From Escherichia coli (lineage in GTDB: Bacteria > Pseudomonadota > Gammaproteobacteria > Enterobacterales > Enterobacteriaceae): a stretch of DNA of 64,000 bases. The DNA lies in NCBI RefSeq assembly GCF_044324875.1, contig NZ_CP172185.1, one strand, 5' to 3'. The first letter of the stretch is position 1; the number at the start of each line of letters is the position of its first letter. The notes under the pieces were generated by a model. The model ran no database searches. It saw nothing but the letters and a program-made list of their open reading frames with translations, and had not been told where the DNA came from. Positions 9,724-49,225 of the stretch are shown here, piece by piece. The position numbers and the translations under genes were made by a program.

Positions 9724-9778
9724 GGTGATGCTGCCAACTTACTGATTTAGTGTATGATGGTGTTTTTGAGGTGCTCCA

Positions 9779-10054
9779 GTGGCTTCTGTTTCTATCAGCT
9801 GTCCCTCCTGTTCAGCTACTGACGGGGTGGTGCGTAACGGCAAAAGCACCGCCGGACATCAGCGCTATCTCTGCTCTCACTGCCGTAAAACATGGCAACT
9901 GCAGTTCACTTACACCGCTTCTCAACCCGGTACGCACCAGAAAATCATTGATATGGCCATGAATGGCGTTGGATGCCGGGCAACTGCCCGCATTATGGGC
10001 GTTGGCCTCAACACGATTTTACGTCACTTAAAAAACTCAGGCCGCAGTCGGTAA
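9779..10054 (+). CDS. insA: IS1 InsA
   Basis: 91 aa [51 protein letters not shown]... Confidence 0.95.
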
Positions 10055-10476
10055 CCTCGCGCATACAGCCGGGCAGTGACGTCATCGTCTGCGCGGAAAT
10101 GGACGAACAGTGGGGCTATGTCGGGGCTAAATCGCGCCAGCGCTGGCTGTTTTACGCGTATGACAGGCTCCGGAAGACGGTTGTTGCGCACGTATTCGGT
10201 GAACGCACTATGGCGACGCTGGGGCGTCTTATGAGCCTGCTGTCACCCTTTGACGTGGTGATATGGATGACGGATGGCTGGCCACTGTATGAATCCCGCC
10301 TGAAGGGAAAGCTGCACGTAATCAGCAAGCGATATACGCAGCGAATTGAGCGGCATAACCTGAATCTGAGGCAGCACCTGGCACGGCTGGGACGGAAGTC
10401 GCTGTCGTTCTCAAAATCGGTGGAGCTGCATGACAAAGTCATCGGGCATTATCTGAACATAAAACACTATCAATAA
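9973..10476 (+). CDS. insB: IS1 InsB (transposase made as InsAB' by -1 frameshift)
   Basis: 167-aa ORF overlapping insA in the -1 frame; the A-run frameshift site TTAAAAAACTC lies in the overlap. Confidence 0.9.
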
Positions 10477-10729
10477 GTTGGAGTCATTACCGAAAATTAC
10501 CATCATCATATTTAACAAAGAATAGCACTAATTGCTAAAAAAAGAAGTTTATTAAACCCCTTTTTCATCCATTAATGCCTTTAGGAATATTCGATATAAA
10601 ATAAGGGTTATGCTTAATGCTTTAAGAAAAATAGCAATTTCCCCTTGAATATATTACGGGCGATGGAACGATGAATCTGCAAGCTGGCATTTAACAAACC
10701 AGCTCTAAAAGAAGGGAAATAAGAATACT

Positions 10730-10764
10730 CAAAAAACAGCCACGGTCATCATGATGTGGCTGTC
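10730..10764 (-). terminator. Putative Rho-independent terminator downstream of lsrK
   Basis: Minus-strand hairpin CAGCCAC...GTGGCTG followed by a T-run (GTTTTTTG), just 3' of the lsrK stop. Confidence 0.5.
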
Positions 10765-10771
10765 AATGAAA

Positions 10772-12364
10772 CTATAACCCAGGCGCTTTCCATAACGACG
10801 TCGTCAGTCCATGATCAACCAGCCCCAGCTGATCCTGATAAACTGCCTGCCACTTATCCCGTGAATCCTGATAAAGTTCATGCTTTTCCGGGTCTGGTGT
10901 GTGCGTCCGTTCCCAGCGAACCAGGCGTTCTCCGGTTTCTGCCATTGATGAAAAAATTCCGGCACCGACGCCAGCTGCAATGGCACATCCTAATGCGGTG
11001 GCTTCTTTGACCACCGGAATATTGACGGGTAATCCCGAGACATCAGCGAGAATTTGACTCCATAATTTCCCTTTTGAACCTCCGCCTGCAAAGACTAACG
11101 ATGAAGGATGAATATTCGAGAAATCAGCGATTTGTTGCAAATTACACGCTGATACAATCGCCGCATTTTCTTCCAGCGCACGGAACAACGTCGCTTTGTT
11201 ACATTTATCCGGATCAATAGACAAATTAATAAAGGAAGGCGCAGCGTGATACCAGGTTTTAAAGCGCATTCTGTCGGAGAATATCGGCATTACGCCCCAC
11301 GACCCAGGCGGCACCCGACTTGCCATCTCTTCCAGCAGCGTATAGGTGTCGATGCCTAAACGTTCGGCAATCAGTTTTTCTTCGGCACAGAAAGCATCGC
11401 GGAACCAGCGCATGGTGAGTCCGGTAAAAAAGCTTATAGATTCAGCTTGTACCATGCCAGGAATAACATGAGGATTAACGCGCACGTTCATTTCTGGGTC
11501 TGTCACCGGCGCGGCTAAGTTTACAACTTGCTGCCAGAATGTGCCGCCAAGAACAGCGGTTTGTGCCGGACGCACAACGCCTAACCCCAGGCAACCAAGT
11601 TGCACGTCGCCTCCTCCAACGACCACCGGAGTGCCCGCCTTCAGACCGCAGAGTTCCGCCGCTTGTGAACTTACCACGCCCAGCAATGTGCCGGTTTCTT
11701 TGACAGGAGAAAGAATATCGGCCCGCAGTCCGGCCATATCCAGCAATGCAGGTTTCCAGTCACGGGTGGTTAGGTCAAGAAGTCCCGTGGTGCCAGCGTT
11801 AGAGGGATCCACCGCCAGTTCGCCGCTGAGCATATAGGCCAGCCAGTCGCTGATCATGGTGATGGTCGACGCCTGTCGGTAGATATCAGAACGATGGTGC
11901 GCCAGCCAAAGTAATCTGGGAATAGCGCTTAAAGCCAGCGTTTGTCCGGTGGCGCGATAAACTTCGTTTTCAAAGGTATTGTTGTGCAGTTCTTTAAGTT
12001 CGCTAACTTCGCGCGCCGCTCTGGCATCCACATTGGCGCAGGCCCAGATCGGTGTTCCTTCATTGTTATATAAAACAATGCCTTCGCGCATCGAACATGC
12101 CGAAACGGCAGCGATATACTCCGGGGCTATGCCGGCGTTGTGCAGCGCCTGGCGCATACACTCACACGCCAGTTGCCAGTTTTTGTTGAGATCAAATTCC
12201 ATAGAACCAGGAACGTCCGGTACTGCCAGATGCCGCCACTCCGCCTGTCCCACTGCTATTTGATTGCCTTCCAGGTCGAATATCACAGCCCGAATACTTC
12301 CGGTGCCTGCATCCAGCGCCATCAGGTAGTACTTTGATTCTGAAGGGGTAAAGAGTCGAGCCAT
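10772..12364 (-). CDS. lsrK: Autoinducer-2 kinase
   Basis: 530 aa, FGGY carbohydrate-kinase fold, N-terminus [35 protein letters not shown]; synteny with lsrR and lsrACDBFG. Confidence 0.95.
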
Positions 12365-12442
12365 TAGATTATCCTCGGCTTATGCGTTCTGTCTGTTCCT
12401 CTATACGTTCTCCATCATTCCCGGTAATAAGGTCATGCAAAT

Positions 12443-47376: not shown

Positions 47377-47510
47377 CTTTGTCACTTATTGACATCATGT
47401 ATAGTTATAGGACGACATAATATCATCAATATAAACATCCTCCTGGTACGTTTTGCGTTCGCAGTGGATGGTGTAGAATCACCTTTAATCATTCATACAG
47501 GGAATGAATT

Positions 47511-47852
47511 ATGAAAATTACTCTCAGCAAACGAATTGGCCTGCTCGCTTTTCTGCTGCCTTGCGCACTGGCATTGAGCACAACTGTTCATGCCGAAAAT
47601 AACAAACTGGTGATTGAGTCTGGCGACAGTGCGCAAAGCCGCCAGCACGCCGCTATGGAAAAAGAGCAATGGAATGACACGCGCAATCTGCGCCAGAAAG
47701 TGAATAAACGCACTGAAAAAGAGTGGGATAAAGCCGACGCCGCTTTTGATAACCGCGATAAATGTGAGCAAAGCGCCAACATCAATGCCTACTGGGAGCC
47801 AAATACTTTGCGCTGCCTGGACCGTCGAACTGGCCGCGTTATTACCCCCTAA
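47511..47852 (+). CDS. ynfB: Secreted protein YnfB (UPF0482)
   Basis: 113 aa with signal peptide. Confidence 0.9.
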
Positions 47853-47886
47853 CCTGTTATTGATTTAAGGAATGTAAGGACACGTT

Positions 47887-48447
47887 ATGCCAAGCGCCCA
47901 CAGTGTTAAGCTACGCCCGCTGGAGCGTGAAGATTTACGCTATGTACATCAACTCGACAATAACGCCAGTGTGATGCGTTACTGGTTTGAGGAACCCTAC
48001 GAAGCCTTTGTTGAACTCTCTGATCTGTACGATAAGCATATTCACGATCAGAGCGAACGGCGCTTTGTGGTGGAATGTGACGGCGAAAAAGCCGGTCTGG
48101 TGGAGCTGGTGGAAATTAACCATGTTCATCGCCGCGCAGAATTTCAGATAATTATCTCCCCGGAATATCAGGGGAAAGGTCTGGCAACGCGTGCCGCAAA
48201 ATTAGCAATGGACTATGGCTTCACCGTTCTCAATCTCTATAAGCTGTATCTGATCGTCGATAAAGAGAATGAAAAAGCGATACACATTTACCGCAAGCTT
48301 GGCTTTACGGTTGAAGGTGAATTGATACATGAGTTCTTTATTAATGGTCAATATCGGAATGCCATTCGCATGTGCATATTCCAGCATCAGTATCTGGCAG
48401 AGCACAAAACACCGGGTCAGACTCTCCTGAAGCCGACCGCACAATAG
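47887..48447 (+). CDS. speG: Spermidine N1-acetyltransferase (GNAT)
   Basis: 186 aa [41 protein letters not shown]...; stop codon is the last 3 nt before IS1. Confidence 0.95.
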
Positions 48448-48462
48448 GGTAATGACTCCAAC

Positions 48463-48966
48463 TTATTGATAGTGTTTTATGTTCAGATAATGCCCGATGA
48501 CTTTGTCATGCAGCTCCACCGATTTTGAGAACGACAGCGACTTCCGTCCCAGCCGTGCCAGGTGCTGCCTCAGATTCAGGTTATGCCGCTCAATTCGCTG
48601 CGTATATCGCTTGCTGATTACGTGCAGCTTTCCCTTCAGGCGGGATTCATACAGTGGCCAGCCATCCGTCATCCATATCACCACGTCAAAGGGTGACAGC
48701 AGGCTCATAAGACGCCCCAGCGTCGCCATAGTGCGTTCACCGAATACGTGCGCAACAACCGTCTTCCGGAGCCTGTCATACGCGTAAAACAGCCAGCGCT
48801 GGCGCGATTTAGCCCCGACATAGCCCCACTGTTCGTCCATTTCCGCGCAGACGATGACGTCACTGCCCGGCTGTATGCGCGAGGTTACCGACTGCGGCCT
48901 GAGTTTTTTAAGTGACGTAAAATCGTGTTGAGGCCAACGCCCATAATGCGGGCAGTTGCCCGGCAT
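48463..48966 (-). CDS. insB: IS1 InsB
   Basis: 167-aa ORF identical in protein sequence to copy-1 InsB. Confidence 0.9.
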
Positions 48967-49160
48967 CCAACGCCATTCATGGCCATATCAATGATTTTCT
49001 GGTGCGTACCGGGTTGAGAAGCGGTGTAAGTGAACTGCAGTTGCCATGTTTTACGGCAGTGAGAGCAGAGATAGCGCTGATGTCCGGCGGTGCTTTTGCC
49101 GTTACGCACCACCCCGTCAGTAGCTGAACAGGAGGGACAGCTGATAGAAACAGAAGCCAC
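48885..49160 (-). CDS. insA: IS1 InsA
   Basis: 91-aa ORF identical to copy-1 InsA. Confidence 0.95.
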
Positions 49161-49225
49161 TGGAGCACCTCAAAAACACCATCATACACTAAATCAGTAA
49201 GTTGGCAGCATCACCCACAATAGCA

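Follow-up and report, generated by a model that had tools for sequence, protein, structure and literature searches.

Do two identical insertion sequences that lie in inverted orientation 38 kb apart on a bacterial chromosome mark a segment that was moved or flipped as a unit, or are they separate insertions that left the DNA between them in place? We addressed this question for a stretch of 64,000 nucleotides of the Escherichia coli contig NZ_CP172185.1 (assembly GCF_044324875.1), hereafter the window, which spans the replichore junction of the chromosome and carries two copies of IS1 on either side of the genes from lsrK to speG. With a probability of roughly 0.9, we conclude that the two elements are separate, recent transpositions of an IS1A-like IS1 into the terminus region of the chromosome.

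Identity of the two IS1 copies

A repeat search over the whole window returned one long inverted repeat only, with arms at 9724-10491 and 48448-49215. Each arm is 768 nt long, the arms are 100% complementary, and the spacing between them is 37,956 nt. A perfect repeat of this length cannot have arisen by chance. These are the positions and orientations given by an initial annotation of the window, which had also described the encoded proteins as identical. Indeed, InsA (91 aa) and the open reading frame (ORF) of the insB frame (167 aa) are the same in both copies. Copy 1 (9724-10491, plus strand), delimited from the repeat search, the ORFs and its junctions, consists of the left inverted repeat (IRL, 9724-9746), insA (9779-10054), the insB frame (9973-10476) and the right inverted repeat (IRR, 10469-10491). 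Copy 2 (48448-49215, minus strand), delimited from the repeat search and the ORFs, has the same sequence, with insA at 48885-49160 and the insB frame at 48463-48966, both on the minus strand.

Several properties identify the elements as members of the IS1 family, and we found no evidence that contradicts this identification. Both copies have the length (~768 bp) and the imperfect terminal inverted repeats (~23 bp) of the family: they begin with the IRL GGTGATGCTGCCAACTTACTGAT and end with an imperfect inverted copy of it, ATCAATAAGTTGGAGTCATTACC, whose reverse complement is GGTAATGACTCCAACTTATTGAT. In both, the insA and insB' frames overlap and an A6C slippery site, TTAAAAAACTC, is present, at 10028 in copy 1 and as its reverse complement at 48901 in copy 2. 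In IS1, this site causes the -1 frameshift that yields the InsAB' transposase, and RefSeq labels near-identical copies in other genomes as 'programmed frameshift'. The element matches the annotated IS1A of K-12 MG1655 at 765 of 768 nt. It shares with IS1A the 768-bp length, the terminal inverted repeats, the InsA sequence, the layout of insA and insB and the A6C -1 frameshift site. It differs by three nucleotides, two of which alter residues in the insB frame (C5S and R65S relative to K-12), and by its insertion sites, which are private to this genome.

Copy 2 at the boundary of speG and ynfC

Copy 2 is a simple insertion. On the plus strand its junctions read ACCGCACAATAG, then IS1, then CACAATAGCATT, and the 8-bp direct repeat CACAATAG stands on both sides (48440-48447 and, from reading the junction, 49216-49223, both given on the plus strand). 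The initial annotation was thus right that this copy retains its target duplication, which is 8 bp long rather than the usual 9. For IS1, duplications of 9 bp are more usual and 8 bp is inside the known range of the family. In genomes with an empty site the octamer CACAATAG is present once. For instance, in strain 118UI the match to the left flank ends at 1,864,721 and the match to the right flank starts at 1,864,714, an 8-bp overlap, and the IS1 at another locus of the comparison (L007) likewise shows an 8-bp overlap. Copy 2 is the only one of the two copies with an IS1 target duplication of 8-9 bp.

The left copy of the octamer is the 3'-terminal 8 nt of speG, with the stop codon (TAG) included. 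Because the duplicated octamer is the 3' end of speG, and because speG and ynfC are convergent genes only 2 bp apart at the uninterrupted site (reference annotation), neither ORF is cut short in the window: speG (47887-48447, plus strand) encodes a spermidine N1-acetyltransferase of 186 aa that ends in ...KPTAQ*, and ynfC (49226-49936, minus strand) encodes a lipoprotein. Copy 2 therefore sits between speG and ynfC and not in speG, despite automatic annotation that places the IS1 "in speG".

Two other strains, EC09 (L017, 693-1476) and 1368KP, carry an IS1 at exactly the same site with the same CACAATAG duplication, in the opposite orientation. Several further genomes have an IS1 within a few hundred bp of the site, and in another ~15 genomes an IS1 lies within about 1 kb of it. 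These insertions suggest that the boundary of speG and ynfC is a local hotspot of IS1 insertion.

Copy 1 and an 846-bp deletion

The 9-bp flanks of copy 1, CCCTTATCC on the left and GAAAATTAC on the right, do not match, and copy 1 therefore has no target duplication. Both of its junctions are sharp at the exact ends of IS1. In strains ECA64, C4, HYM1 and BEC1-S17-ESBL-09, the two flanks map to one locus and one strand, with 846 bp between them. The stretch that is missing from the window corresponds to positions 9862-10707 of the reference and takes in the initial 605 nt of a minus-strand autotransporter gene and 241 nt of the DNA upstream. In ECA64 and BEC1-S17-ESBL-09 the intact gene has a length of 5,421 nt. 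In the window its 3' 4,816 nt remain (4908-9723, minus strand) as one uninterrupted frame of the ECSE_1600 family (yneO-type), without a promoter, a start codon or the signal peptide (extended signal peptide region, ESPR). The K-12 counterpart of the gene is the pseudogene yneO. On the other side of copy 1, lsrK (10772-12364, minus strand) is intact and ends 280 bp from the IS1.

On this comparison of sequences, we read copy 1 as an IS1-associated deletion. The 846-bp deletion would account for the lack of a target duplication, which consequently does not count against the identity of the element as IS1. Both the lack of a duplication and the deletion that truncates the autotransporter gene had been missed by the initial annotation. 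Copy 1 would have landed within or beside the 5' end of the large, dispensable autotransporter gene, and a deletion joined to it would then have taken away the target duplication, the promoter of the gene and its first 605 nt. This deletion could have arisen by intramolecular transposition of IS1 (adjacent deletion) or by recombination between two nearby IS1 copies in direct orientation. An adjacent deletion is a classical outcome of IS1 activity, in which the element is joined to the deletion without a duplication. Copy 1 resembles the classical case in that a single IS1 abuts the deletion, that no target duplication is present, and that one of the junctions presumably marks where the element first inserted. 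Homologous recombination after two direct insertions would produce the same arrangement; Raeside et al. (2014, PMC4173774) invoked recombination between direct IS1 copies as a route to deletions in evolving E. coli populations. Among the six other IS1-bearing versions of the locus, none carries an ancestral IS1 that shares a junction with copy 1.

The autotransporter gene has been hit by IS1 in other E. coli as well. The gene carries a complete IS1 insertion at each of four other sites, strain HeN100 has a fifth copy of which only the right junction lies in the gene, and one further IS1 copy lies in lsrK. At one of the four sites, in strain JX21CE8, the IS1 sits on a 204-bp deletion and has no duplication. 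Given these insertions and those at the very site of copy 2, the autotransporter locus and the boundary of speG and ynfC are both repeat targets of IS1.

Distribution of the insertions among other genomes

We searched 5,426 complete E. coli genomes with each IS1 copy plus 400-bp flanks as queries. IS1 was found nearby in 34 genomes at the locus of copy 1 and in 7 genomes at the locus of copy 2, and neither exact insertion (same junctions and same orientation) occurred in any of the 5,426 genomes. Exact 40-mers over one junction of each copy also had no match in the GTDB representative genomes or in the contigs of JGI metagenomes. Because the exact insertions were found in no other genome, both look private and recent, and the 100% identity of the two copies fits this. 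In the 34 genomes, the IS1 near the spot of copy 1 has the same orientation as copy 1. We rejected an orientation bias of IS1 in the autotransporter gene as an artefact, since the search joins only pieces on the same strand.

The privacy of both junctions is also what one would expect if one IS1 copy, most likely copy 1 with its apparent 846-bp deletion, were an artefact of assembly, such as two direct IS1 copies collapsed into one or a scaffold joined at a repeat. The missing duplication of copy 1 would fit such an error, as would the length of the repeats, since 768 nt exceeds the length of short reads (Lee et al. 2016, PMC5009759). We nonetheless regard this explanation as quite unlikely. 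The clean 8-bp duplication at copy 2 is not something that an assembler invents, and the same site is used in EC09 and 1368KP; both junctions of copy 1 coincide sharply with the ends of IS1; and the IS1 of JX21CE8, on a deletion without a duplication in the same gene, indicates that the configuration of copy 1 is biologically normal.

The presence of two IS1 copies in this region is itself unremarkable. A median of 11 places per E. coli genome matched our queries, of which one or two are the flanks, leaving about ten IS1 copies. By our own arithmetic, the expected number of pairs less than 38 kb apart among ten copies on a 5-Mb circle is 45 x (2 x 38 / 5000), or ~0.7, and half of these pairs would be inverted. 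Two copies within 38 kb are thus roughly what chance would give.

Order and orientation of the bracketed segment

The segment between the two IS1 copies (10492-48447; 37,956 bp, from lsrK to speG) is in the ancestral order and orientation. In a blastn comparison with the IS-free relative BEC1-S17-ESBL-09, the window aligned in four blocks, all on the same strand, over positions 1-63,439. Collinearity was broken only by a 138-bp gap in hipA, by copy 1 with its deletion and by copy 2 with its duplication. The bracketed segment formed a single alignment on the same strand with 99.7% identity, and its gene order and orientation agree with BEC1-S17-ESBL-09, with the alignable part of ECA64 and with K-12. 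We judged its gene content by collinearity with the annotated genome AP022298, which bore out the lsr, tam, uxaB, sad, mar, dcp, ydf and rsp loci listed in the initial annotation.

At about 44,400, the junction of ydfJ and rspB is uninterrupted in the window and in BEC1-S17-ESBL-09, and ECA64 carries a Qin-like prophage there. ECA64 also has an additional 6-kb cluster for a phosphotransferase system (PTS) and a 6-phospho-beta-glucosidase after marB relative to the window. The 38-kb spacing of the IS1 copies is therefore specific to the lineage.

These alignments bear on two further explanations. According to the first, both IS1 copies and the interior form a 39.5-kb composite transposon, like Tn9 or Tn1681, that moved in as a unit. 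Composite transposons flanked by IS1 are well known, and here two complete IS1 copies with intact outer ends do bracket a segment. However, the outer flanks, CCCTTATCC on the left and CACAATAGC on the right, differ. They form no duplication, which argues against transposition of the whole unit into this locus, and the one duplication that is present belongs to copy 2 alone. The interior, from lsrK to speG, and the outer flanks are moreover collinear with IS-free E. coli chromosomes, which makes them native DNA in its native place. On the evidence of the flanks and of collinearity we rejected a composite transposon as an account of the past, and its probability is close to nil.

According to the second, the segment has already undergone a single inversion or an even number of them, and the missing duplication of copy 1 is the scar. 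The state of copy 1 would agree with this, but a single inversion would have split both duplications, and both halves of CACAATAG still flank copy 2. An inverted interior would also align to BEC1-S17-ESBL-09 on the opposite strand, whereas the segment aligns on the same strand throughout, and this collinearity contradicts a net past inversion. The flanks of copy 1, 846 bp apart on one strand at one locus in the relatives, carry the signature of a local deletion instead. An even number of exact inversions would be traceless, yet it would leave the missing duplication unexplained. We find a past inversion barely credible. Our reading of the alignments, like that of the initial annotation, is that no net inversion has taken place between the IS1 copies in this sequence, and two separate insertions remain the preferred explanation.

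We also looked for the inverted isomer in other genomes, a check that the initial annotation had proposed, with a chimeric query made of the left flank of copy 1 and the reversed left flank of copy 2. The two halves of the query were adjacent in none of the 5,426 complete E. coli genomes. The configuration had been described as 'poised' for inversion. This holds in a general sense, because homologous recombination between inverted IS copies can invert the intervening DNA (PMC5009759) and because the long-term evolution experiment produced IS1-mediated inversions, including one of 1.49 Mb tabulated for the evolved population Ara-1 (PMC4173774). It is, however, a generic property of such pairs and not evidence of activity, and the inverted junction was absent from the genomes searched. 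The possible assembly ambiguity that was also raised is real, as inversions of this kind are invisible to paired-end short reads (PMC5009759).

The experimental E. coli populations (PMC4173774, PMC5009759) had the same substrate, identical IS1 copies. There, inverted copies gave inversions, and direct copies or IS1 itself gave deletions after which one IS1 remained and had no duplication, which is also the state of copy 1. Here, by contrast, only the substrate for an inversion is present and no inversion, and the 38-kb segment is far below the 1.49 Mb of Ara-1.

Terminus context of the segment

Neither dif nor TerC is included in the feature table of NC_000913.3, and we located both by sequence. 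The site dif, where XerCD resolves chromosome dimers, occupies 3169-3196 on the minus strand (AGTGCGCATAATGTATATTATGTTAAAT); it is 6.5 kb away from the segment, on the left side of copy 1. It differs from the K-12 site by one base, an A in place of G in the outermost position of the XerC-binding arm. This A is common to BEC1-S17-ESBL-09 and ECA64, and the change is probably a neutral polymorphism of the lineage. The polarity of the FtsK-orienting polar sequences (KOPS) switches exactly at dif, with two motifs on the plus strand to its left and three on the minus strand to its right, and the GC skew to the right of dif is negative.

The replication terminator TerC (ACATAGGATGTTGTAACTAATAT; 21311-21333, plus strand) lies inside the bracketed segment, in the spacer between yneE and uxaB as in K-12. 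One nucleotide differs from K-12, a C for T at the second base that is shared with BEC1-S17-ESBL-09 and ECA64, and the core GGATGTTGTAACTA is the same. The polarity of Tus-Ter complexes is well established, and in its present orientation TerC is predicted by this rule to stop forks that travel from left to right, that is, from the side of dif. The segment contains a single canonical KOPS motif (GGGCAGGG; 17876-17883, minus strand), which points toward dif, and its 39 genes are about evenly divided between the strands.

Predicted consequences of an inversion

In principle, RecA-dependent recombination between the two copies could turn the 38-kb segment (lsrK to speG) around, and no gene would be broken. 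Because the segment carries TerC and abuts dif, and given the polarity of Tus-Ter, a flip would turn TerC against the other fork and leave dif outside the trap. TerC would come to lie at about 37.6 kb on the minus strand, where it would be a barrier to the fork of the other replichore ~34 kb before dif. The clockwise fork would run on to TerB, and the innermost trap would become TerC'-TerB, with dif ~34 kb outside it.

Similar arrangements have been described in natural isolates (Goodall et al. 2021, PMC8347550). Every E. coli genome of that survey has dif within the innermost ter sites, and in Shigella genomes whose terC is flipped, dif has moved into the new trap. The innermost trap reported for such genomes of Shigella flexneri 2a and S. 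boydii is TerC'-TerB, the same trap that an inversion here would give. Unlike in Shigella, where dif moved too and stays inside the trap, dif in the window is outside the invertible segment and would end outside the trap. The same study found that moving dif outside the trap lengthens the doubling time. Based on this cost, and on the position of dif inside the trap in the surveyed E. coli, we consider the inversion mechanically possible and probably selected against. With TerC in the segment and dif 6.5 kb away, an inversion would probably have greater consequences and a smaller chance of persisting than the initial annotation implied.

Two points weigh against a large cost, which may be mild: no KOPS motif other than the one at 17876 would be reversed, and an inversion engineered in the Ter macrodomain with one end at dif is reported to lack the cell-division defect (PMC2585057). 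The inversion would also reverse a 9:5 bias of Chi sites.

Other features of the window

Next to dif, hipA (3274-4458, minus strand) has an in-frame deletion of 138 bp relative to BEC1-S17-ESBL-09, ECA64 and K-12, with the junction near 3548. The deletion removes 46 residues (LIGATDGHAKNFSV...GIHISD), including the catalytic loop of the kinase, and hipB (4458-4724 region) is intact. To judge by its sequence, the HipA toxin is probably dead in this strain. The frequency of the deletion could be assessed only among the 12 best-matching genomes listed, all 12 of which have a full-length hipA (two pieces spanning 538 bp for a 400-bp query).

At the other end of the window, collinearity with BEC1-S17-ESBL-09 stops at 63,439, and at about 63,440-64,000 on the minus strand a Y1 transposase of the IS200 type runs off the end of the window. 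We identified it by eye from its translation, which contains WNCKYHIVFAPKYRR and REFWCRGYYVDTVGKN. This element is a third mobile element and lies downstream of ynfM. The repeat search also returned direct repeats of 273-300 nt at 50692-55275, with 71-78% identity and a spacing of about 2,484-2,496 nt. These are the paralogous reductase genes ynfE and ynfF, which are ordinary paralogs.

Implications

IS1 is among the best-known bacterial insertion sequences, and the finding matters little in itself: the element and the mechanism are both already known, and the pair is an ordinary feature of an E. coli chromosome. For the strain, it means the loss of a yneO-type autotransporter through an IS1-associated deletion, together with a pair of repeats that is able to hide an inversion from short-read data. 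We also considered that two isomers, with the 38-kb segment in opposite orientations, might coexist naturally in the source strain, with the polarity of TerC switching between them, which we hold to be very improbable. If it were so, a TerA-TerC trap that contains dif would alternate with a TerC'-TerB trap that does not, and the strain would be an intermediate toward the rearranged termini of Shigella. Were the inversion to have occurred, it would provide a natural test of whether dif must lie within the innermost Ter sites.

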